A stretch of DNA of 11,823 bases. It comes from a virus. Each line of letters opens with the position of its first letter. Within the stretch, counting starts at the first letter, position 1. The stretch lies in UHGV virus genome UHGV-1844342; one strand, 5' to 3'. This document shows positions 1 to 11,823 of the stretch, in pieces. Position numbers and translations under genes: made by a program. The notes under the pieces were generated by a model, which saw nothing but the letters and a program-made list of their open reading frames with translations, was not told where the DNA came from and did no database searches.

Positions 1-16
1 GCCAGTGATGGGTTAA

Positions 17-490
17 GTGATAACAGGTGTCTGGAAATATAGGGGCAAATCCAGTTGGGTTTGGACTGTACCAAAAGATCACTCAAAAACTGGTGTTGAA
101 ATCGTCAGACCAGTACCTGAAATTCTACGACAGTGGGTAACGGATGTTCACGAAGAGACAAAACATACTGGTTATGTGCTGGGAAGTCTGCGAATTAGAG
201 AAAGCGTAAGCAAGATTGGGGGGAAAATCGGTAAACGTTTGGGCCATGAAAAACAATGGTCACTACACGACCTTAGAAGAACGCTATCTACTCATCTAAG
301 TGATCTCGGTGTTGAATTTTATGTAGTAGAACAACTGTTAGGCCATGCGCTACCTGGCGTGGCAGGTGTTTACAACCGGAGTAAGTTTATGGCTAAAAAA
401 CTGGATGCTCTGGAACTCTGGACTACATATCTCAATAGCATCGCAGGTGCTGATTCAAAAGTGACAATCCTCAAACAAAAGGTTGGTTAA
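17..490 (+). pseudogene. int: Tyrosine integrase (P4/CP4-57 type), C-terminal catalytic fragment only; 5'-truncated or frameshifted
   Basis: Translation has SKTG (conserved Lys region), HDLRRT (His-x-x-Arg), LLGH and GVYNRS (catalytic Tyr) motifs of tyrosine recombinases. In-frame TAA at 14-16 and stops in all three forward frames within the first 45 nt, so the N-terminal domain and box I Arg cannot be read through from upstream. Confidence 0.65.
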
Positions 491-491
491 C

Positions 492-719
492 ATGAAAAAA
501 ATGGCAATTGTTGATAAAAAGGGTCTGGAGTACATTCCTAACATTGACCGAATGATCCGTGAGAAAGAATGTCGGGAGCTAACCACTCTTGCGAACAGCA
601 CACGCTGGAAGCTGGAGAAGGAAGGAAAATTTCCTAAGCGGATCAAGATTGGTTCCACTGCTGTTGCATATCGTCTTTCAGAAGTGCAGGCATGGATTCG
701 AGGTGAGTGGGTAGTTTAA
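492..719 (+). CDS. alpA: AlpA/Vis-family prophage transcriptional regulator (winged HTH)
   Basis: 75-aa product; ...ELTTLANSTRWKLEKEGKFPKRIKIGSTAVAYRLSEVQAWI... fits the AlpA/Vis HTH pattern; sits directly after int as in Gram-negative PICIs; ATG 492 with AAGG 9 nt upstream (track start 483 is a TTG). Confidence 0.8.
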   Translation: MKKMAIVDKKGLEYIPNIDRMIREKECRELTTLANSTRWKLEKEGKFPKRIKIGSTAVAYRLSEVQAWIRGEWVV

Positions 720-744
720 ATTATCTCAGAATAAAATATTATGA

Positions 745-780
745 ATTACTGATTTGAGAATTTGTACTCAAATCAGTAAT
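745..780. terminator. Perfect 14-bp inverted repeat (ATTACTGATTTGAG / CTCAAATCAGTAAT) with 8-nt loop; candidate bidirectional intrinsic terminator between alpA and the convergent minus-strand cargo gene
   Basis: Arms 745-758 and 767-780 are exact reverse complements; AT-rich flanks on both sides; lies between convergent stop codons (719 and 789). Confidence 0.55.
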
Positions 781-788
781 AACATTCT

Positions 789-1325
789 TTATAAGAGATT
801 AAATCCAAATAAAGAGTAATCATATACCGGGGTGCATTGCATTCCACTGAATATGCTGATGTTTTTTTCTGTTTCTATCCTTTTTTCAATAAGTTGTTGT
901 ATATTTTTACAGTACAATTTGTGTGTGATGTTATTATCGTAAGCCTGATATAGCAACGTCAATGTTGACGCTAGGAAACATACAGATAAAATTAAAGTAA
1001 CATATGCGGTTTTTTTATTTTTTGTCCATGATCTATTTGTTTGTGAAATATAAAGAATTCTGATGTGGATAATGGTGAGAGACAATAGCAGGCCACTCAA
1101 TAAAATAAGTATTGGGTTTGCGTATTTTATTAATGGTTGAGAGCAAAAAACTATTATAGCTCCTGTGACTGCGTATGAGAAAAAGGAGTAATTAAACTTC
1201 TTACTCCTTCTCTCAAGTATTTTAATTTCATCTTGTGTGGGGGTTTTAGATGCCTCTAATATAAGTTTATTGAATGTTTCTGTTATCTTGTTTTTTGTGT
1301 TTGTGGCTATTTTTTTTAGATTCAT
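789..1325 (-). CDS. Hypothetical small membrane protein (about 3 predicted TM segments) in an AT-rich cargo island
   Basis: 178-aa ORF on the minus strand; GGAG about 12 nt upstream of ATG; hydrophobic stretches FFSYAVTGAIIVFCSQPLI, PILILLSGLLLSLTIIHIRILYI, AYVTLILSVCFLASTLTLLY; local GC far below the rest of the island. Confidence 0.55.
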   Translation of the reverse strand: MNLKKIATNTKNKITETFNKLILEASKTPTQDEIKILERRSKKFNYSFFSYAVTGAIIVFCSQPLIKYANPILILLSGLLLSLTIIHIRILYISQTNRSWTKNKKTAYVTLILSVCFLASTLTLLYQAYDNNITHKLYCKNIQQLIEKRIETEKNISIFSGMQCTPVYDYSLFGFNLL

Positions 1326-1639
1326 AGCATTCTAACTCCCTTAACTTATTTATTACTTTCTCTTTATGATAAGAGAGGGGAATGACTTGGTAAAGTGATT
1401 TGTCATTAATAATGATAATCCTTGCGATAAATATTTCTGCAAGTTATTTATCTGTTTGTTGCTATCTTGTTAAGCGTTGGGTGTGGTTTATGTTTGGAGC
1501 GACTTTATTTAATCGTGATTTTATGGATTTATATTTATATCCTGTAAGATAAGCGCATGTTAGTTCAGGAGTAGTGTCAGATAAAATTATTCGGAGTAGA
1601 ACTACCTTTTCTGTTTATTGCCAGTATTTACATAGCAAT

Positions 1640-1666
1640 GCGCCGTAGTTACTCACATCACGGCGC
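1640..1666 (-). terminator. Weak candidate hairpin (GCGCCGT ... ACGGCGC, 7-bp stem, 13-nt loop) just downstream of the minus-strand regulator gene
   Basis: Inverted repeat 1640-1646 / 1660-1666, 10 nt past the stop of the 1676-1978 gene; no clean U-tract. Confidence 0.25.
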
Positions 1667-1675
1667 TGATACTAA

Positions 1676-1978
1676 TTATTCAGATTCTTTGGCTTTACGC
1701 CGCTGGAGTTCTTCACGAGCGACGGCTACGAGTTGCCCGATTTCCTCCGCTGCCTTGATGCCGATTTGTTCGACCTTAGCTAAGGCATCCAGTGAAGACA
1801 CGAGGGGATTTTCTCCGCTTCCTTCTGCCTGGCGGCGGGCGATCTCACCGCGCATGGCGGTTACTATGAATCCGGCGTTGCTCTCGCCGTCCAGTTTTAC
1901 GGATTCCATGCCCTCCATAACATCGTGGGGAACCCTGATCGTTGTCATTTGCGATTTTGCATTTTTGTATACAGACAT
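1676..1978 (-). CDS. Putative ribbon-helix-helix (Arc/CopG-like) DNA-binding protein; candidate master repressor of the island, divergent from the early operon
   Basis: 100-aa ORF; N-terminal MTTIRVPHDVMEGMESV...NAGFIVTAMRGEIARRQ resembles a beta-strand/helix/helix RHH fold; divergently arranged relative to the operon starting at 2187 with an operator-repeat array in between. Confidence 0.45.
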   Translation of the reverse strand: MSVYKNAKSQMTTIRVPHDVMEGMESVKLDGESNAGFIVTAMRGEIARRQAEGSGENPLVSSLDALAKVEQIGIKAAEEIGQLVAVAREELQRRKAKESE

Positions 1979-1989
1979 AGTTAATCACC

Positions 1990-2110
1990 AATTTGTTATG
2001 TGTATATCACTATACACAAAAGTGATATATAAAAACACTTGCAATGTATATCACCACAATATAATGTATATCTCACATTATGGTCGCTATGTATCTCACA
2101 ATGATCGATT
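1990..2110. promoter_or_regulatory. Divergent promoter/operator region: four direct copies of TGTAT(A)TC(T)CAC(A) at 2001, 2045, 2065, 2090, one inverted copy (GTGATATA, 2022-2029), and a consensus -10 TATAAT (2060-2065) with TTGCAA (2039-2044) 15 bp upstream
   Basis: Repeats read directly from sequence; the -10 hexamer overlaps the repeats, consistent with a repressed early promoter. Confidence 0.6.
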
Positions 2111-2186
2111 CATAAAAACGACGAAACCCGGCAGTGCGCGAACACTAACCGGGCTTCTAACCAAACCGTTAAACGAGGTAACGATT

Positions 2187-2552
2187 ATGGCTGGAACACA
2201 GCATACCCAAACTCACCCTAAATTTATATACACCTTTCTGGCACTACACCACGACCGCATGGCAGATGGAGCAACTACGGTACATGTAGCCGCTGACACG
2301 CTGGTTGATGCCCGCAAGATGGTTAAGGAGATGGGCTATACTGCGGCTTTCTGGAAAGGGCGTGAAGAAAACACGCTGTTTATTCAGAAATGCGAAAACA
2401 ATTTCATCTGGCGTTTTATCGCCCTGAGTACGGCACAACCGCGCGTGATTCACATCGTGGCCACCAGCGAACAGGAAGCCCGCCAGCAATCCCCGGCTGG
2501 TTGCGTGAGGGTATTCGCCGCCCGTATTCGTCAGGAGGTATGCCGTGCTTAA
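2187..2552 (+). CDS. Hypothetical protein, first gene of the early operon
   Basis: ATG 2187 with GAGG 8 nt upstream; 121 aa; the track ORF 1638-2552 is the same frame, but its upstream part overlaps the operator region and the minus-strand regulator gene. Confidence 0.55.
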   Translation: MAGTQHTQTHPKFIYTFLALHHDRMADGATTVHVAADTLVDARKMVKEMGYTAAFWKGREENTLFIQKCENNFIWRFIALSTAQPRVIHIVATSEQEARQQSPAGCVRVFAARIRQEVCRA

Positions 2553-2730
2553 AACCTTCCGTGTATTTGCCCGAGCGGTTAACCCACGAGGCCACACAAT
2601 TGGTATCACTCAGAACGTGAAGGCTGTTAATGTTCAGACGGCTATTGCTGTGGTGAGAAGCGAATCATCAGAATATGGCTTATCACAAGTCATTATTTCA
2701 GCAGTGTATGAATTAAAAGAGGTGCATTAA
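2545..2730 (+). CDS. Hypothetical small protein (61 aa)
   Basis: GTG start 2545 with strong AGGAGG 6 nt upstream; overlaps the previous stop and the next start (TAATG at 2727-2732), i.e. translational coupling. Confidence 0.5.
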   Translation: MLKTFRVFARAVNPRGHTIGITQNVKAVNVQTAIAVVRSESSEYGLSQVIISAVYELKEVH

Positions 2731-2921
2731 TGCAGGAAATTACATTACACGAAGCCGCTGAACGTGCGCACCAGACAGAAATTATTTGCCGCCTTCTTGA
2801 GGTATACCCGAACAAAATTACAGATGCTGATATATCCGCACTGGCGAGCCTACTGGCGCGTCTTTCGGGAAGTGTCGCTAGTTTTTTGATTGAGGAAGAA
2901 AGTAAGCTGGTGGGGGATTAA
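2730..2921 (+). CDS. Hypothetical small protein (63 aa)
   Basis: ATG with AAGAGG upstream; stop followed immediately by the next start (TAAATG). Confidence 0.5.
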   Translation: MQEITLHEAAERAHQTEIICRLLEVYPNKITDADISALASLLARLSGSVASFLIEEESKLVGD

Positions 2922-3143
2922 ATGAATACAGAACGGGAAGTCTTTTTTAAATTGTTAGCATGTGCAGAAAGTTCATTAACTTTAAATAATTCAGCAAAAG
3001 CAATATTAAATATGTGGCTTGATTGCATAAATGACAATGAAGATGCAAATATTGCTTATGGCCTGTTGTCACTTATTGATGAAGCAGCAGAAAAACTCAA
3101 TGACGCAATAAATAGTGCCCTGTTATCAAATAAGTCGAGTTAA
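2922..3143 (+). CDS. Hypothetical small protein (73 aa), AT-rich moron-like gene inside the early operon
   Basis: ORF with GGGGGA upstream; base composition clearly lower in GC than flanking genes. Confidence 0.45.
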   Translation: MNTEREVFFKLLACAESSLTLNNSAKAILNMWLDCINDNEDANIAYGLLSLIDEAAEKLNDAINSALLSNKSS

Positions 3144-3160
3144 GTCGAGGAATAAATAAT

Positions 3161-3460
3161 ATGGAAATGAAAAATTCTGGCTTTATTGCCAGCGGCCCCG
3201 CTCGGCCTGAATTTATGAACGGCGATATTTACCGCGATAAATACGGCGGCACGGTAACGATTAAAGGCGTGGCAGAACGGCGCATCACTTACCGCCGTGA
3301 GGGGTATAGCTATGACTGCGTGATGCCTGTTTATCAGTTCCGGCGTGATTTTTCCCTGGTATATGCCGCACCTCGCAGTAAGCCCACCAGCAGGGAAAAA
3401 GCGCGGGGAAACATCCAGAAAATGAAAAGCATGATTAACGCATTCAGGGGCAAAAAATGA
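3161..3460 (+). CDS. Hypothetical protein (99 aa), translationally coupled to the replication gene
   Basis: GAGGAA upstream of ATG; stop overlaps the start of the downstream gene (ATGA at 3457-3460). Confidence 0.55.
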   Translation: MEMKNSGFIASGPARPEFMNGDIYRDKYGGTVTIKGVAERRITYRREGYSYDCVMPVYQFRRDFSLVYAAPRSKPTSREKARGNIQKMKSMINAFRGKK

Positions 3461-5208
3461 AACTGGCACCGAACTTAAAAAAACAGCCACGCGACAGACT
3501 GACAGAGGTAATCATCTTTGCAGGTAGTGATGCGTGGAGCCATGCGAAAGAGTGGCAGGAATGGGCGGGTAAACATATTGCCGCCGACGATGTGCCGCCT
3601 GTCGTGCTGGCTGATGAGCAACTGAAAAACATCATCGATTACCGGATCATTGATGAAGATCGTCAGTGTGTGCGTGTTTACCGCGCAGGACATATCACAG
3701 AGCACAGCATGACGCAGATTGTTACGTTACTGGCTGTGGCTGGAGTGAAGACCGTACACGAATACGCGGGGATTACTGACACCAGCCCCGTGGATTTATC
3801 CGACCAGTTGCCGCGACTCAAAGAGGAATGCGAGCGTGGGGAAAGTCTGGTGCTTAATCTTCCGACGAAGCAAAAGGCGCAACTTTCACAGATGGCAGAC
3901 AGTGAACGTGCACAACTACTTGCCGATCGCTTTGATGGTGTGTGTGTTCATGCAGAAAGTGAAATCGTCCACGTATGGCGCGGCGGGGTATGGTGTCCGG
4001 TCAGCACAATGGAGCTGAGCCGCGAAATGGTGGCGATCTATTCAGAGCACAGGGCCACGTTCAGCAAACGTGTAATCAATAACGCCGTGGAAGCGTTAAA
4101 AGTTATTGCCGACCCCATGGGGGAGCCGTCCGGTGATTTACTACCGTTCACTAATGGTGTGCTTAACCTGAAAACGGGGGATTTTTCTCCGCACTTACCG
4201 GAGCACTGGAGCACCACGCACAATGGCATTGAGTACACGCCACCAGTAGCAGGGGAAAACATCCGCGATAATGCGCCAAATTTCCATAAATGGCTTGAAC
4301 ATGCTGCAGGAAAAGACCCGCGCAAGATGATGCGTATATGTGCCGCGTTATACATGATTATGGCGAACCGCTACGACTGGCAGATGTTCATTGAGGCCAC
4401 CGGAGACGGGGGAAGCGGTAAGAGTACATTTACCCATATTGCCACCCTGCTTGCTGGCAAACAGAACACCGTAAGCGCAGAGATGACATCACTCGATGAT
4501 GCAGGAGGGCGCGCGCAGGTTGTCGGGAGTCGTCTTATCGTCCTTGCCGATCAGCTGAAATATACGGGGGAAGGCACGGGCATCAAGAAAATCACGGGAG
4601 GCGATCCCGTTGAAATTAACCCGAAATATGAGAAGCGATTCACGACGATAATAAGGGCGGTGGTACTGGCAACCAATAACGACCCGATGATCTTTACCGA
4701 ACGGGCCGGAGGTGTGTCACGCCGTCGGGTGATTTTCCGGTTCGACAACATTGTAAGGGAGGACGAAAAAGACAAGGAATTACCGGAAAAGATAGCGGCA
4801 GAAATCCCCGTAATTATCCGCCGCTTGCTGGCTAATTTTGCTGACCCTGAAAAGGCACGGGCTTTATTACTGGAACAGCGTGACGGTGATGAAGCTCTGG
4901 CAATAAAGCAGCAAACGGATCCGGTTGTTGAGCTTTGCGCGGCGCTGGAGTTTCTGGAGGAAGCTCGTGGGCTAATGATGGGCGGTGGTGGTGACACCGT
5001 GAAGTACACGACCAGAAACAGCCTTTACCGTGTCTATATGGCCTTCATGGCATATACAGGAAAGGGGAAATGTTTGAGCGTGAATGAGTTCGGAAAGGCT
5101 ATGAGGTCAGCGGCGAAAGTTTACGGATATGAATATATTACGCGAAAAGTTAAGGGAGTCACGCAGACCAACGCAACGACTACTGATGATTGCGATGCGT
5201 TTTTATAA
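3457..5208 (+). CDS. Replication protein: SF3 helicase with primase-associated N-terminal region (P4 alpha C-terminal / D5-like family; PICI pri-rep analogue)
   Basis: 583 aa; Walker A EATGDGGSGKST (about nt 4395-4430), Walker B-like RLIVLADQ (about 4531-4554), motif C-like VLATNND; iteron origin immediately downstream. Confidence 0.85.
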   Translation: MKLAPNLKKQPRDRLTEVIIFAGSDAWSHAKEWQEWAGKHIAADDVPPVVLADEQLKNIIDYRIIDEDRQCVRVYRAGHITEHSMTQIVTLLAVAGVKTVHEYAGITDTSPVDLSDQLPRLKEECERGESLVLNLPTKQKAQLSQMADSERAQLLADRFDGVCVHAESEIVHVWRGGVWCPVSTMELSREMVAIYSEHRATFSKRVINNAVEALKVIADPMGEPSGDLLPFTNGVLNLKTGDFSPHLPEHWSTTHNGIEYTPPVAGENIRDNAPNFHKWLEHAAGKDPRKMMRICAALYMIMANRYDWQMFIEATGDGGSGKSTFTHIATLLAGKQNTVSAEMTSLDDAGGRAQVVGSRLIVLADQLKYTGEGTGIKKITGGDPVEINPKYEKRFTTIIRAVVLATNNDPMIFTERAGGVSRRRVIFRFDNIVREDEKDKELPEKIAAEIPVIIRRLLANFADPEKARALLLEQRDGDEALAIKQQTDPVVELCAALEFLEEARGLMMGGGGDTVKYTTRNSLYRVYMAFMAYTGKGKCLSVNEFGKAMRSAAKVYGYEYITRKVKGVTQTNATTTDDCDAFL

Positions 5209-5220
5209 AAAATGGCAATG

Positions 5221-5455
5221 GTTATCTACCTTGTCTACCTGACTGAAATAAAATACTTTTATTTCAATGTATTAATGCAGGTAGATAACTATTTTTCACT
5301 GTCTACCTGTTATCTACCTTATCTACCCATTTTTGTAGACAGGTAAGGAGACGGGTAGAGATGAGGTAGACAGCTATTTGGGGCTGTCTACCTCCCTGAA
5401 ACCCGCGCCATTACTGGCCTGATAACTAATCAGGTAGACAAGGTAGACAAGGTGG
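5221..5455. repeat. Iteron-type replication origin: about 12 copies of GGTAGAC(A)/GTCTACC (with GGTAGATA variants) in both orientations flanking an AT-rich spacer (5241-5278)
   Basis: Copies at about 5223, 5233, 5280, 5301, 5312, 5321, 5335, 5353, 5365, 5385, 5433, 5442; tandem pair GGTAGACAAGGTAGACAAGG at 5433-5451; directly 3' of the helicase gene as in PICI/P4 ori. Confidence 0.8.
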
Positions 5456-5497
5456 TGGTGCACAAAAAACTTTTTAAACGAGGGGGTAAAAATAAAA

Positions 5498-5740
5498 ATG
5501 CACACATCAGGAAAACTGAACAAACATATAAAGCCACATTACCGCGCCCTTGATATGGCTGAACACTGGCTAAGGGTGGCGATTAAGGCAATAGACCGCA
5601 ACGCCGGGGAAGGATACGCGAAAGCACATCCCGAACTGATAAGCGCATTCATGACAACGGCGGCTGCAAACTTTGCCACGCTGACCGAACGGGAGATTGC
5701 CGAAGCGGAGGAAGTGACAACCATCAATATTAAGTCCTGA
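5498..5740 (+). CDS. Hypothetical protein (80 aa)
   Basis: ATG with GAGGGGG upstream; no overlapping conflict. Confidence 0.5.
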   Translation: MHTSGKLNKHIKPHYRALDMAEHWLRVAIKAIDRNAGEGYAKAHPELISAFMTTAAANFATLTEREIAEAEEVTTINIKS

Positions 5741-5751
5741 GAGCAGGCAGC

Positions 5752-6201
5752 ATGACGGCGCAAATAGCAGCTTACGGGCGGCTGGTGGACGACCCACAGG
5801 TAAAACATACCAGCAAGGGAACACCCATGACACTGGCACGGATGGCGGTATCTTTGCCATGCAGCCAGGCAGATGACGGAACGGCGACGATGTGGTTATC
5901 TGTGCTGGCGTTTGGCAGACAAGCCGACGCGCTGGCAAAGCATCACAAAGGCGAACTCCTGAGCGTGGCGGGTAATATGCAGGTGAGCCAGTGGAGCGGA
6001 CAGAACGGGGAAACGCGGCAGGGCTGGCAGGTTATCGCAGACAGCGTAATCAGTGCCAGAACGGTGCGACCGGGCGGCAAAAAAGGTCAACAGGGGCAGG
6101 CTACTGATGCACTGAACAGAGCAAAACAACAGGCAGATCAGCAAGGAAGCCATCCACCAGTGGGAGATAATGAGCAATGGGGAGATGATATTCCGTTTTA
6201 A
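5752..6201 (+). CDS. ssb: Single-stranded DNA-binding protein
   Basis: 149 aa; OB-fold-like N-terminal region, Gly/Gln-rich linker, and canonical acidic C-terminal tail ...GDDIPF. Confidence 0.8.
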   Translation: MTAQIAAYGRLVDDPQVKHTSKGTPMTLARMAVSLPCSQADDGTATMWLSVLAFGRQADALAKHHKGELLSVAGNMQVSQWSGQNGETRQGWQVIADSVISARTVRPGGKKGQQGQATDALNRAKQQADQQGSHPPVGDNEQWGDDIPF

Positions 6202-6219
6202 ATATTGCCAATAAAAAAG

Positions 6220-6243
6220 GCCGGAAAAAATATATTTTCCGGC
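6220..6243. terminator. Hairpin GCCGGAAAA / TTTTCCGGC (9-bp stem, 6-nt loop) between the replication and morphogenesis modules
   Basis: Exact inverted repeat 6220-6228 / 6235-6243; an A-run precedes it on + (so a T-run follows it on the minus strand); function as a module boundary is inferred. Confidence 0.35.
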
Positions 6244-6411
6244 ATGCTACATAAATCCCGACCAAAGGGAGTGAAGATATTAACACTAATTATCCGCGCT
6301 GAAGTTGTCATCCCAAAACTTTATACAACATTGCACTCGGTTGCATGTGTTAGCATGACAAATATCGGTGATAGCATATATCCACAATTATTTTTAATGA
6401 ATGTAAAGAGG

Positions 6412-7458
6412 ATGAGTATGGTTGATTTATATTCGCCTGCCCAGCTTGTGCAGGTGGCTAATGCAGAAGAGGTGCAAAAAAAATTAAATGCATTGTTTAC
6501 CAGTTTGTTTTTCACTCGCTCGGTAATGTTTGAATCAAGAGACATTATTCTTGATACAATCGACGATCCAAATATCCCAATTGCAGCGTTTTGTTCTCCT
6601 ATGGTGGGTAGTAAAGTTTCACGTGACGAAGGGTACGAATCAAAGACAATTCGTCCAGGCTATATGAAGCCGAAAAGCAGCATTGATCCAAATAAGTTAG
6701 CTGTGCGCCCTGCTGGTGTATCACCTGAGCAATACAATGCTTTTGGAGCGCGTAATATTAAAGTTAAACAGGCGATTGTAAATCAGGCTAAAGCTATTCG
6801 TGCACGTATTGAATGGCTTGCCGTTCAGGCAATCACAACGGGGAAAAATATCATTGAGGGCGATGGCATTGAACGCTATGAACTGGACTGGAATATAAAA
6901 CCACAAAATATTATCACGCAGTCCGGCGGTGCTGAGTGGTCAGGTAAGGATAAAGAAACTTTTGATCCAAATGATGATATTGAGAGCTACGCAGAATTTA
7001 GTGAGGGCGTCACTAATATCATCATTATGGGCGGTAATGTATGGAAGAAATACCGTTCATTCAGAGCGATAAAAGAGGCTCTGGATACCCGTCGTGGTTC
7101 TAATTCCGAACTGGAAACGGCCCTTAAAGACCTTGGTGATTCGGTGAGTTTTAAAGGGTATATGGGCGATGTTGCGATTGTTGTATACAGCGGGCGTTAT
7201 ACCGACGAGGACGGAACTGAAAAACATTTCCTTGATCCTGATTTGATGGTGCTTGGCAATACGGCTCTTCAGGGGATTGTCGCCTATGGCGGTATTCAGG
7301 ATCCGGAGCTAATCCGAATGGGGCTGACTAAAGCCGAACTTGCACCGAAAAACTATATTGTGCCTGGTGATCCGGCTATTGAATATGTGCAGACACATTC
7401 AGCACCACAGCCAATACCGGCCCGCATCAATCGTTTTGTTACCGTTCGCATTGGCTAA
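6412..7458 (+). CDS. Major capsid protein, divergent homolog of lambda gpE (HK97 fold)
   Basis: ATG 6412 preceded by AAGAGG; C-terminal about 200 aa align with the lambda E fragment present in this same window (shared blocks ITQSGG.EWS..DK.T.DP.DDIE.YA, DTRRGS.SELETA.KDLG, GDVAIVVYSG, MVLGNT), roughly 55-60 percent identity there by eye; N-terminal third far more divergent. Confidence 0.85.
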   Translation: MSMVDLYSPAQLVQVANAEEVQKKLNALFTSLFFTRSVMFESRDIILDTIDDPNIPIAAFCSPMVGSKVSRDEGYESKTIRPGYMKPKSSIDPNKLAVRPAGVSPEQYNAFGARNIKVKQAIVNQAKAIRARIEWLAVQAITTGKNIIEGDGIERYELDWNIKPQNIITQSGGAEWSGKDKETFDPNDDIESYAEFSEGVTNIIIMGGNVWKKYRSFRAIKEALDTRRGSNSELETALKDLGDSVSFKGYMGDVAIVVYSGRYTDEDGTEKHFLDPDLMVLGNTALQGIVAYGGIQDPELIRMGLTKAELAPKNYIVPGDPAIEYVQTHSAPQPIPARINRFVTVRIG

Positions 7459-7467
7459 GGGGGAGCA

Positions 7468-7809
7468 ATGGCTACTCATTACACTGAACTCATGGCTGGC
7501 ACTGAAGCACTGGTGACTACGCTGGGGATATTTTCAGCTAATAAAGGGGTAATTCCTGCATTTACGCCACTGATGCAGGAAGATGCAACAGGTGCACTGG
7601 TGGTATGGGATGGTTCGAGCGTAGGTAAAGCGGTTTATGTTTCCGCTGTACAAATCGACACCGCGAAAAAAACACAGGCTCAGGTCTATAAGACAGGTGT
7701 CTTAAATGTTGATGCTCTGAACTGGCCTGAGTCTGTAAAAGAACTGTCAGTAAAGATTGCAGCGTTTGTTGGCTCAGGTATTTCTGTTCAGCCGCTGGCT
7801 CGTGTGTAA
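7468..7809 (+). CDS. Head decoration protein, lambda gpD-like
   Basis: 113 aa; AAGGGGGAG RBS; blocks TPLMQEDATGALVVWDG, VYKTGVLNVDALNWPES and FVGSGISVQ resemble lambda gpD (TPLM..VAWDG, FYKSGTFRYEDVLWPEA, FAGTAISIV) as recalled. Confidence 0.7.
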   Translation: MATHYTELMAGTEALVTTLGIFSANKGVIPAFTPLMQEDATGALVVWDGSSVGKAVYVSAVQIDTAKKTQAQVYKTGVLNVDALNWPESVKELSVKIAAFVGSGISVQPLARV

Positions 7810-7820
7810 AGGGGGATACA

Positions 7821-8204
7821 ATGCAGAATCATTACAATGACCTTAAGCCAATTGCCGAAATGATGTATCCGGATCCAGCAGTAGAGGAATTAAAGGCTAT
7901 TGCTGACAAAATGCGTTTAAGCGAGCGTCTTGTTGATATGAATCAGGTGATGGAACTTACAACCCTGAGTCGTCGTACACTGCTAAACCTTGAAGCACGT
8001 GGAGAGTTCCCCGAACGCGTGCAGGTTACGGAAGGGCGTAAGGCCTGGTATTTAAGCGAAGTGATCGACTGGATAAACAATATTCCGCGCGCTTCTGAAT
8101 ATTGCCGCGTACCTGTCCCAAAAAAGCCAGATGCGGCGCTATGCCTCAAGATTGAGCGTGTACGCCGCAATGCGCGGGATGGTCGCTATAAGCTGATTGG
8201 TTGA
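7821..8204 (+). CDS. Second AlpA-family HTH protein with about 40-aa N-terminal extension; candidate late/packaging regulator
   Basis: 127 aa; AAGGGGGA RBS; core ELTTLSRRTLLNLEARGEFPERVQVTEGRKAWYLSEVIDWI matches the AlpA/Vis winged-HTH pattern. Confidence 0.7.
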   Translation: MQNHYNDLKPIAEMMYPDPAVEELKAIADKMRLSERLVDMNQVMELTTLSRRTLLNLEARGEFPERVQVTEGRKAWYLSEVIDWINNIPRASEYCRVPVPKKPDAALCLKIERVRRNARDGRYKLIG

Positions 8205-8219
8205 TGAAATTAGGGCCCG

Positions 8220-8300
8220 TTCTGGCTGGCGGGTCCTTTCCGGCGATCCAGAACGTTACGGGGCGGCGACCTCGCGGGTTTTCGCTATTTATGAGCATTT
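8220..8300 (+). other. cos: Lambda-type cos site: cosQ-like segment, cosN 12-nt cohesive-end sequence GGGCGGCGACCT (8261-8272), and proximal cosB segment
   Basis: 8223-8294 reads TGGCTGGCGGGTCCTTTCCGG.GATCC....GTTACG GGGCGGCGACCT CGCGGGTTTTCGCTATTTATGA, matching the joined right-end/left-end sequence of phage lambda as recalled; a Nu1-like gene follows as in lambda. Confidence 0.85.
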
Positions 8301-8405
8301 TTAGGGGACTGGTGGTGGTTTTGTTGTTCGCTATATCTGTATGAATAATAAGAGAAAAACACAATCAACACACCAACCTGAAACAGTAATTAAGTTGTGG
8401 TATCA

Positions 8406-8948
8406 ATGAAATTGCACCTGATGAACAAAAAAAACATGGCAAAAAGTTGCCGTGTAAGCGCCACTGCGTTCGATAAGTGGGGAGTGATTCCCGTCGAGCG
8501 TAAGGGCCGCGAGGCGTTTTATGATGTCGCCAGTGTAATAGATAATCGGGTTAACAATGCAATCAGCCAGATTACAAACGAAACGGGCGAGATTGATGAT
8601 GATGAACTCCTACGAGTCAGGATCAGATTGCTGACAGCACAGGCAGAGGCGCAGGAGCTTAAAAACGAGCGCGAACGCGGCGACGTTATTGATACAGCGT
8701 TTTGTATATACGTGCTTTCAAAACTGGCGAGTCAGATTTCTTCAATCATGGACAGCCTGCCGCTTGCCATGACAAGGAAGTTTCCCGACATGAAGCCGTC
8801 TATGCTGGATGGACTGAAAAAAGAAGTTATCAGAGCCTGTAACGCATGCGCAAAACTTGACGAAAACATACCGCTGATGCTGTCCGATTATCTGATGGAA
8901 ACTGCCGGAAACGTACCGGATAAGTTGCAGCTGAATAAAGATAAGTAA
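8406..8948 (+). CDS. Terminase small subunit, lambda Nu1-like (winged HTH N-terminus plus gpA-interaction C-terminus)
   Basis: C-terminal two-thirds aligns with recalled lambda Nu1 (LTAQAEAQELKNER...DTAFCIYVLSKLASQISSIMDSLPLAMTRKFPDM...KLDENIPLMLSDYL vs LTRAQADAQELKNARD...ETAFCTFVLSRIAGEIASILDGLPLSVQRRFPEL...ALDELIPGLLSEYI); N-terminus more divergent; start 8406 by analogy with lambda (8421 is an alternative; track start 8397 is GTG). Confidence 0.8.
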   Translation: MKLHLMNKKNMAKSCRVSATAFDKWGVIPVERKGREAFYDVASVIDNRVNNAISQITNETGEIDDDELLRVRIRLLTAQAEAQELKNERERGDVIDTAFCIYVLSKLASQISSIMDSLPLAMTRKFPDMKPSMLDGLKKEVIRACNACAKLDENIPLMLSDYLMETAGNVPDKLQLNKDK

Positions 8949-8959
8949 CGTAGTACGCT

Positions 8960-9241
8960 ATGACTGAATCCGAAATACTGCGATTAATCCGCCGTGCTTG
9001 TGGAATCAGCAAGCAGCATGACGAACAGGCCACGCAGCCGGACAGCGTGATCGCCGAAAATTACGCGCGTGTTGTTGCTGATGTGATGCGCCGTGATGGT
9101 ATTGAGCTTAACGGCGTGGATATGCGCGACATACGGATCAGATTCCTTGAGTTGCTGGCATACCGTCGCCGTTCTCAACAACGAAGGGAGAGCGCGAAAA
9201 ACACTTATCAGTGGAAGAAGCCGGAACGGTTGCGGCGGTAG
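8960..9241 (+). CDS. Hypothetical basic protein (93 aa) in the position occupied by the large terminase gene in lambda
   Basis: ORF directly downstream of the Nu1-like gene (12-nt gap); Arg-rich C-terminus; no obvious SD; no similarity to lambda gpA N-terminus that I can see. Confidence 0.45.
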   Translation: MTESEILRLIRRACGISKQHDEQATQPDSVIAENYARVVADVMRRDGIELNGVDMRDIRIRFLELLAYRRRSQQRRESAKNTYQWKKPERLRR

Positions 9242-9983
9242 ATTCCTGATATTCAGGAAAACCACGAATCCGGGGGTTTTACTGGCGCGGTGTACACGGT
9301 GGAACGTATAGCGTTACCTGACTTATTGCATTGTAAAAAGTTGAAAGGCACGGCCTGTAAGATGGGATGTTGTGAGTAGTTTAAAGCTACCCGCAAATTC
9401 TTTCGTTGTGCTGGCACAGGCGGTTAAACCGTCGGTAACTGGATAATCCCCACTGGGGGAAAAGCTGGCTACATCCCTCACATCTGAGGACTGATAACGC
9501 AAAATTGCGTTGGCTGGCAGAGTGCAAATTTGCACGATGGCCTAACCCATTGATTCTTTCGAAAACCCCCATTGGGGGAGAACGGGGGAATAAACCTGAC
9601 TCATTGATTTTTCCACAATCCTTAATTTGAGGAAGCTGGATAGTTGCACTACCCAAAAAGTGCAGTACCCACATAGCTGCTTAATAGCGTTTATTTTTTC
9701 CGCACACCTCAAATCTGAGAAGGCCGGAATGATGACATGGCAGGATTATGATTCCTTGATTTCAAGGAGTCCTCCAGTGTGAAAATGAAATTATCTGGGC
9801 TGGTGGGTGAGTTGCTGATCTGCAACTCGGCTATGAAACTTAATAATCGAACAGCATGTAAATTCATTTCTGTGTATTGCAGCATGTATTGCAACATAGT
9901 CATTCTGGTAGAGATTATGCTCTATTTTTCCTCTTATATCATTCACATACTTACGTCATTGACTCATGTAGCCGAAGCATGAG

Positions 9984-10760
9984 GTGAATCCGCAGATGAC
10001 CCTGCGTCGCCTGCCGGATGAAGATCCGCAGAATCTGGCGGACCCGGCTTACCGCCGCCGTCGCATCATTATGCAGAACATGCGTGACGAAGAGCTGGCC
10101 ATTGCCCAGGTCGAAGAGATGCAGGCAGTTTCTGCCGTGCTTAAGGGCAAATACACCATGACCGGTGAAGCTTTCGATCCGGTTGAGGTGGATATGGGCC
10201 GCAGTGCGGCCAACAACATCACGCAGTCCGGCGGCACGGAGTGGAGCAAGCGTGACAAGTCCACGTATGACCCGACCGACGATATCGAAGCCTACGCGCT
10301 GAACGCCAGCGGAGTGGTGAATATCATCGTGTTTGATCCGAAAGGCTGGGCGCTGTTCCGTTCCTTCAAAGCCGTCAAGGAGAAGCTGGATACTCGTCGC
10401 GGCTCTCATTCCGAGCTGGAGACAGCGGTGAAAGACCTGGGCAAAGCGGTGTCCTACAAGGGGATGTATGGCGATGTGGCCATCGTCGTGTATTCCGGAC
10501 AGTACGTGGAAAACGGCGTCAAAAAGAACTTCCTGCCGGACAACACGATGGTGCTGGGGAACACTCAGGCACGCGGTCTGCGCACCTATGGCTGCATTCA
10601 GGATGCGGACGCACAGCGCGAAGGCATTAACGCCTCTGCCCGTTACCCGAAAAACTGGGTGACCACCGGCGATCCGGCGCGTGAGTTCACCATGATTCAG
10701 TCAGCACCGCTGATGCTGCTGGCTGATCCTGATGAGTTCGTGTCTGTACAACTGGCGTAA
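9984..10760 (+). pseudogene. E: Major capsid protein gpE, 5'-truncated fragment (C-terminal about 258 codons), near-identical to lambda E
   Basis: Translation NPQMTLRRLPDEDPQNLADPAYRRRRIIMQNMRDEELAIAQ...EFVSVQLA matches lambda gpE from about residue 85 to the end as recalled; in-frame TAG at 9969-9971 and non-lambda AT-rich sequence upstream; the track start is a GTG that is internal in lambda. Confidence 0.85.
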
Positions 10761-10801
10761 TCATGGCCCTTCGGGGCCATTTTCTCTCTGTGGAGGAGTT
10801 C

Positions 10802-11200
10802 ATGACGAAAGATGAACTGATTGCCCGTCTTCAGGAGCTGGGTGAGCAACTGAACCGCGATGTCAGTTTGACGGGAACGAAAGAAGAACTGGCGCTTCGT
10901 GTGGCAGAGCTGGAAGAAGAGCTTGATGACACGGATGAAACTGCCGGTCAGGACACCCCTCTCAGCCGGGAAAATGTGCTGACCGGGCATGAAAATGAGG
11001 TGGTATCAGCGCAGCCGGATACCGTGATTCAGGATACGGCTGAACTGGTCACGGTTGTGGCACTGGTGACGCTGCATACTGATGCACTTCACGCCACGCG
11101 GGATGAACCTGTGGCATTTGTGCTGCCGGGAACGGCGTTCCGTGTCTCTGCCGGTGTGGCAGCTGAAATGACAGAGCGCGGCCTGGCCAGAATGCAATAA
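10802..11200 (+). CDS. FI: DNA-packaging protein FI, lambda-like
   Basis: MTKDELIARL...LTGTKEELALRVAELEEELDDTDETAGQDTPLSRENVLTGHENEV...AEMTERGLARMQ matches lambda gpFI as recalled; GGAGGAG RBS before ATG 10802 (the track start 10763 is an upstream extension). Confidence 0.9.
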   Translation: MTKDELIARLQELGEQLNRDVSLTGTKEELALRVAELEEELDDTDETAGQDTPLSRENVLTGHENEVVSAQPDTVIQDTAELVTVVALVTLHTDALHATRDEPVAFVLPGTAFRVSAGVAAEMTERGLARMQ

Positions 11201-11211
11201 CGGGAGGCGCT

Positions 11212-11823
11212 GTGGCTGATTTCGATAACCTGTTCGATGCTGCCATTGCCCGCGCCGATGAAACGATACGCGGGTACATGGGAACGTCAGCCACCATGAC
11301 ATCCGGTGAGCAGTCCGGTGCTGTGATACGTGGTGTTTTTGATGACCCTGAAAATATCAGCTATGCCGGACAGGGCGTGCGCGTTGAAGGCTCCAGCCCG
11401 TCCCTGTTTGTCCGGACTGATGATGTGCGGCAGCTGCGGCGCGGCGACACGCTGACTTCCATTGCCCGGCAATTCGGCACGACGGTCACGAGCATTGTCG
11501 CAATCAATGATCTAAAAAATGAATCTGATCGCAATGAGCAGGACGGCATCAGGTATATGCTTATGGGCTTCTTTCAAGGGCCTCGCAATTTGTACCAACA
11601 CAATCACATTGGCTCCGGTGTAAGCAATTCTATTTCCGTAATCATTGAAGCATCTTTCTTCCTCCATCTACTTGATGGGCACAGCATTACTCAAAACGGA
11701 CGCTGGATTCCGGCCAAAGCAGATTATCACGAGATTTATCAAAAGATGCCCAAGCATATTGATCGTTGGAAGCTTGTACGCCTACTAAAGAAGCGTGATC
11801 GTAGGTTGAAGAAAGATCAATGA
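11212..11823 (+). CDS. FII: FII-like head-tail joining protein: first about 82 codons lambda FII-like, then an unrelated lower-GC C-terminal extension (chimeric or disrupted gene)
   Basis: GTG start with GGGAGG RBS; MADFDNLFDAAIARADETIRGYMGTSAT...VRQLRRGDTLT matches lambda gpFII as recalled, then diverges at about nt 11458 (lambda continues IGEENFWV...); the frame nevertheless stays open for about 120 more codons to the TGA at the window end. Confidence 0.6.
   Translation: MADFDNLFDAAIARADETIRGYMGTSATMTSGEQSGAVIRGVFDDPENISYAGQGVRVEGSSPSLFVRTDDVRQLRRGDTLTSIARQFGTTVTSIVAINDLKNESDRNEQDGIRYMLMGFFQGPRNLYQHNHIGSGVSNSISVIIEASFFLHLLDGHSITQNGRWIPAKADYHEIYQKMPKHIDRWKLVRLLKKRDRRLKKDQ

Follow-up and report, generated by a model that had tools for sequence, protein, structure and literature searches.

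The window, that is, the whole 11,823-nt stretch analysed here, corresponds to nt 1-11823 of ERZ1311620 NODE_1641 (ENA), a 17.5-kb metagenome contig with a coverage of 3.61, as found by an exact look-up of its last ORF. It opens on the right end of an insertion sequence, IS2, and runs through codons 269-411 of a tyrosine integrase gene, alpA, the remainder of a genetic island and its right attachment site into the 3′ part of a lambdoid capsid gene E, followed by FI and FII (Table 1). We find that the island is a known helper-embedded PICI (HE-PICI) of the E:Phage_cap_E:80 group, seated in a lambdoid prophage whose major capsid gene it interrupts; its assignment to this clade rests on the att features and on an integrase sequence 100% identical to those of islands that occupy the same site. 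The type element, Eco567.11capE, and 201 further instances have been described at site E:Phage_cap_E:80 (Tommasini, Mageeney & Williams 2023, PMC10111431).

Table 1. Positions of the features discussed in the text, numbered from the first nucleotide of the window.
Feature	Position	Strand	Basis or remark
IS2 (IS3 family), right terminal 53 nt	1..53	+	last 13 transposase codons and TAG stop (1-42); ends ...GGGGCAAATCCA
Mechanical 157-aa ORF	17..490	+	GTG start; first 12 codons in IS2 sequence
5-bp target-site duplication GTTGG, right copy	54..58	+	matches left junction
Integrase gene, 3′ part	54..490	+	from within codon 267 to codon 411 and stop
Retained integrase residues K278, H338, R341, H364, Y373	codons at 86-88, 266-268, 275-277, 344-346, 371-373	+	residue mapping
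alpA (excisionase/regulator), intact	492..719	+	Pfam Phage_AlpA, E = 2.8e-15; directly after integrase stop
Doubled TGTATTGC motif, attR side, putative arm-type site	9871..9893	+	ends 81 bp before att core centre
attR identity block AGCCGAAGCA, island right end	9970..9979	+	same 10-mer at attL, L005 7573-7582
Helper major capsid gene E, 3′ part, interrupted by island	9980..10760	+	Pfam Phage_cap_E

The left side of the island lies on a second contig of the same assembly and of near-equal coverage, ERZ1311620 NODE_3948 (L005; 8602 nt, coverage 3.81). The 10-bp identity block is shared with the group, listed as agccgaagca for the E_Phage_cap_E_80 HE-PICIs in the published supplement (PMC10111431). 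In HE-PICIs the TGTATTGC motif also occurs twice in doubled form, once 81 ± 2 bp upstream of the attP centre and once 132 ± 2 bp downstream (PMC10111431), and the second motif here (L005 7708-7730) starts about 131 bp after the core centre, so that both the motifs and their spacing are those of the group. The att arrangement is likewise that of an HE-PICI, with E′, attL and int in L005 and attR and ′E in the window; the capsid gene fragment downstream of attR is annotated ‘major capsid protein, missing N-terminus’ in E. coli strain 104 (L001) and in E. coli FDAARGOS_1296 (L008), and its 5′ counterpart lies upstream of attL in L005. A tRNA search for the attachment site that the first-pass annotation had thought of in such a gene found none, the att site being in a phage capsid gene, and Rfam gave no hit at the gathering score, whether for P4-type immunity RNAs (C4/isrK) or for any other RNA.

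The island also follows the zone order of the group, integration, Bro, replication and late, with int and alpA; small ORFs including an Icd-like one; DUF4222, primase and SSB genes; and finally E-like capsid, D-like decoration, AlpA-like and Nu1-like genes. Apart from the integrase, all island ORFs in the window are full length, which bears out the first-pass claim that replication, capsid and packaging modules are kept. As in other members of the group, a cos-like segment is common to island and helper: window 8229-8301, 73 nt, shares 92-93% identity with the cos region of the helper, which immediately precedes Nu1 (L005 1173-1245, L001 5631-5702). After this stretch comes the island's own Nu1-like small terminase gene (8406-8948); this variant has captured a terS gene, reported to be missing from the type element 11capE. 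In its Bro and accessory regions it departs from the island in strain 104. The stretch of about 630 nt that separates the attR-side motif from the last ORF of the island (window 9242-9870) holds no convincing ORF, Rfam hit or tRNA, and since strain 104 carries HEPN and DUF262 genes on the opposite strand in the same place, we regard this segment as a variable accessory slot. Just after alpA, on the minus strand, lies an AT-rich 178-aa ORF (789-1325) with hydrophobic stretches and no Pfam family above threshold, which is conserved in related islands and annotated there as hypothetical.

Of the 411 codons of a tyrosine integrase, only the final 143-145 are present in window 1-490. A megablast search with window 1-720 against 5,426 complete E. 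coli genomes gave a 100% match in 176, in which the window is identical, from nt 53 on, to intact 411-aa integrase genes annotated ‘tyrosine-type recombinase/integrase’ and followed by an AlpA-type regulator; this is the comparison with intact homologues that the first-pass annotation had in mind. Its description of the gene product as a catalytic C-terminal fragment is borne out by Pfam, in which the ORF at 17-490, the sole long one in this region, matches positions 58-169 of the 172 in Phage_integrase (PF00589), the first third of the catalytic domain being absent, as compared with positions 3-169 for the intact homologue. Stops do occur in all three forward frames within the first 45 nt, as had been noted (TGA 6-8, frame 3; TAA 14-16, frame 2, which is the integrase frame; TAG 40-42, frame 1). 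They all fall inside the last 53 nt of IS2 and are therefore no chance feature, and the TAG is the stop codon of the IS2 transposase. The 157-aa ORF is most likely a gene-caller artefact that corresponds to no real protein: its leader, MITGVWKYRGKS, is IS2-derived and recurs in another allele with IS2 in int, the ORF also appears on other contigs that start inside an IS2 right end (L003, L004), no match to a + strand promoter consensus was found upstream, and no clear ribosome-binding site was seen by eye before the GTG at 17.

Homology to the intact integrase begins at nt 53/54, and nt 1-52 match IS ends only. Nucleotides 1-53 align with the right terminus of an E. coli K-12 element annotated ‘insertion sequence:IS2A’, with the last 26 nt identical and 4 differences over 53, and thousands of E. 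coli records contain IS3-family elements whose ends match the IS end at 100% identity; nt 1-56 taken alone match thousands of E. coli sites annotated ‘IS3 family transposase’. The right junction in the window reads ...AAATCCA/GTTGGGTTTGG, where the slash marks the element boundary. The pentamer GTTGG that follows corresponds, in the uninterrupted gene (L001 12203-13438), to the final two bases of codon S267 together with codon W268, and it stands at both junctions, each of them on its own contig of the same assembly. In two control IS2 copies, in which the element boundaries were checked, the 5-bp duplications are GTTCA (L002) and ATTAC (K-12). A complete IS2 is 1.33 kb long and has a frameshifted transposase made from two ORFs; only 53 nt of it are visible in the window and 35-121 nt in the contigs with the left junction, as the assemblies break inside the IS.

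We consider it very probable, on these grounds, that an IS2 insertion split the integrase gene of an HE-PICI of the E:Phage_cap_E:80 group and that the window begins at a contig break inside IS2. The element would have landed directly after codon W268, co-oriented with the integrase gene, and duplicated GTTGG; the short-read contig would then break inside IS2, so that only the IS2 right end and the 3′ third of the integrase are seen, and the 5′ two-thirds, with the arm-binding and core-binding regions and R251, would lie 1.33 kb upstream and end at the TAG with which the IS2 left end begins. Since the assembler would have broken at this repeat, the front two-thirds of the integrase should be on another contig. 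The model predicts an upstream piece ending ...GAAAGTTGG and followed by the IS2 left end, TAGACTGG, with a product of exactly 268 aa that ends at the TAG. This 268-aa sequence is present exactly in the public protein collection, and the contigs that encode it (L005, L006 and L007) all read ...CTCGAAAGTTGG/TAGACTGGCCCCCTGAATCTCC..., the left-junction contigs thus passing from the integrase into the IS2 left end as ...CTCGAAAGTTGG/TAGACTGGCCCC. A scan of the genome contig collection with the 45-nt IS2/int junction gave no exact match, the contigs being located by exact-protein look-ups, and the junction is in none of the complete E. coli genomes of the collection, the best matches in which cover only nt 53-720.

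One of these contigs, NODE_3948, comes from the same assembly as the window and ends with integrase codons 1-268, the last five bases of which are GTTGG, and the IS2 left end. Its order is lambdoid Nu1-A-W-B-C-D-E′, attL, int(1-268), IS2 left end; that of the window is IS2 right end, int(269-411), alpA and the rest of the island, attR, ′E-FI-FII. An N-terminal integrase segment upstream, which the first-pass annotation had raised as something to look for, is found on the other side of IS2. That the two contigs are linked across one IS2 copy we infer from their common assembly, their comparable coverage and the duplication that matches between them; a rearrangement between IS2 copies after the insertion is possible.

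The same evidence bears on two other readings. A true deletion, for example one adjacent to IS2 and mediated by it, could have removed the integrase N-terminus together with attL and left a permanently decayed, domesticated island; the window by itself has no integrase upstream of nt 53, and unmapped elements with transposases near int, suggestive of rearrangements, have been noted among HE-PICIs (PMC10111431). We judge this very unlikely, because the same assembly holds a contig of the form E′-attL-int(1-268)-IS2 left end with the exactly matching 5-bp duplication, and because the remaining island is essentially identical to that of a relative with an intact int. Extremely improbable is an assembly chimera, in which the assembler fused an IS2 end by mistake to an intact integrase gene: the contig has a coverage of only about 3.6x and its right end, from 11457 onward, does look chimeric, but the right junction recurs in two or more further independent assemblies (L003 and L004), among them an NCBI genome assembly, the complementary left junction is present in at least three assemblies, and a chimera would not yield a 5-bp duplication common to both junctions. 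With insertion of IS2 as the preferred reading, the gene is not ‘reduced’ to a fragment, as had been proposed, but split by a 1.33-kb element, with codons 1-268 surviving on a separate contig; the N-terminus seems lost because the window starts where a short-read assembly broke within a repeat.

The active site was mapped by aligning the intact 411-aa protein to the solved structure of XerA (4a8e). The box I arginine is R251 (GCRMSEA), 17 residues upstream of the break at W268, and its absence from the window, correctly noted before, is matched by its presence on NODE_3948; box II is H338/R341 (HDLRR), the second histidine is H364 (LLGH) and the nucleophile is Y373. The β-hairpin lysine we take, by analogy with lambda Int, to be most likely K278 (SKTG). 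Five of the six active-site residues, including the tyrosine, are thus retained in the window fragment, which lacks R251. In the intact protein Pfam places Arm-DNA-bind_3 at 7-93, Phage_int_SAM_3 at 106-148 and Phage_int_M at 113-198, and the arm-binding (7-93) and core-binding (106-198) domains sit in the 268-aa N-terminal piece, which has R251 and no nucleophile, and are absent from the ORF in the window. This architecture, completed by Phage_integrase and followed by alpA, is that of the AlpA-paired tyrosine integrases of P4 and CP4-57 type, and the N-terminus resembles the solved arm domains of CP4-like integrases; unlike those integrases, the one described here targets a prophage late gene rather than a tRNA gene, and it is disrupted in this copy.

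With the break inside the catalytic domain, the integrase as encoded in the window is predicted to be unable to work, and since neither piece has a full active site, the satellite should fail to excise from the helper capsid gene E after induction. Could the C-terminal fragment, or the two fragments together, keep recombinase activity and leave the island self-mobile? Five of the six catalytic residues, the tyrosine among them, are in one fragment and R251 in the other, and engineered split recombinases can be reconstituted. We regard such residual activity as highly improbable, given that the window fragment lacks both DNA-binding domains and a recognisable upstream promoter, that its GTG at 17 is itself inside IS2 and has no clear ribosome-binding site before it, and that nothing is present to bring together halves of a domain broken in its interior. 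The fragments may complement each other, or the cell may contain a second integrase. The split integrase would accordingly probably leave the island unable to excise without an integrase in trans, in keeping with the dependence suggested in the first-pass annotation, here traced to the lack of R251 and the DNA-binding domains in the window; excision from gene E would be regained with a matching integrase supplied in trans or on loss of IS2.

The insertion is recent, and the element is otherwise functional-looking and no long-decayed remnant, since the rest of the island is intact and one base in 11.4 kb differs from a relative with an intact integrase: window 53-11456 has a single mismatch to FDAARGOS_1296 and is 99.98-100% identical to it. 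Of the earlier proposal that the island is ‘immobilised (domesticated)’, the first word holds insofar as the integrase is predicted to be non-functional as encoded; the second is not supported, given so close a match to a relative whose integrase is intact.

A single IS hit may in this way disable two mobile elements, taking out the satellite integrase and keeping the helper capsid gene broken. Excision of the satellite normally comes after excision and replication of the whole composite (PMC10111431), and because excision would restore the helper E gene, the IS2 hit should leave the helper without a capsid gene of its own. The satellite's E homologue might substitute for it, an idea of a ‘backup copy’ that has been raised before (PMC10111431). 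Packaging of a whole 61-kb composite would exceed the lambda insert-size limit (PMC10111431), and the composite here, of about 62 kb, would by the same reasoning exceed lambda-type packaging limits. We think it unlikely that the IS knock-out locks the satellite in the helper capsid gene for good, with both elements grounded or with the satellite head genes taking over. If both were grounded, the host would benefit from the immobilisation of the two elements; if the satellite capsid, decoration and small-terminase genes took over head assembly of the fused genome, satellite genes would have a way of becoming fixed in phages.

The significance of the finding in itself is small, as simple IS2 insertion and the satellite family are both already known and an IS-split gene at a contig edge is routine. 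IS2A splitting yaiX in K-12 is a direct parallel: there too a coding sequence is interrupted by a simple insertion, the element has the same ends and 5 bp of the target are duplicated. It differs from the present case in its target, here a satellite integrase, and in 4 of the 53 visible bases. Relative to Eco567.11capE, the integrase split by IS2 is, with the small terminase gene, what sets this island apart. In practical terms, where a metagenome contig begins with an IS end, a gene fragment at its start should not be taken for an eroded gene.

Further disruptions are seen in related islands. A second, independent IS2 insertion lies in the same integrase gene and the same orientation, 36 bp upstream at codon A255 (...AAATCCA/CCCGATTATC), in L011 1-120 (contig JBGRSU010000033.1 of GCA_041727895.1), which belongs to a related HE-PICI with a TIR-domain gene after alpA. 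Two IS2 hits within 13 codons could reflect a target hot spot or selection for locking. In FDAARGOS_1296 (L008 4541-9004) an IS66-family element interrupts the primase gene of the near-identical island, the integrase of which is intact. Judged from these alleles, copies of this satellite lineage appear to be in the course of being disabled by different IS elements.

Two features outside the island concern the contigs themselves. In the helper portal gene, codon 157 is TGA (L005 4507-4509) as compared with TGG in strain 104, which gives two ORFs; this may be a real nonsense mutation, and hence a defective helper, or an error at 3.8x coverage. At the other end, homology to the E. coli FII (head-tail joining) gene stops at window 11456 (codon 82), and from 11457 to 11823 (and L009 10246 onward) the FII ORF runs in frame into LysM / Hypoth_Ymh (HEPN-like RNxxxH) sequence that matches nothing in E. 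coli. The join at 11457 is probably a chimera of the 3.6x metagenome assembly, a real insertion being possible; beyond 11456 the GC content is 0.44 as compared with 0.58, and the rest of the contig encodes RES, MobA_MobL and DUF3847 proteins.
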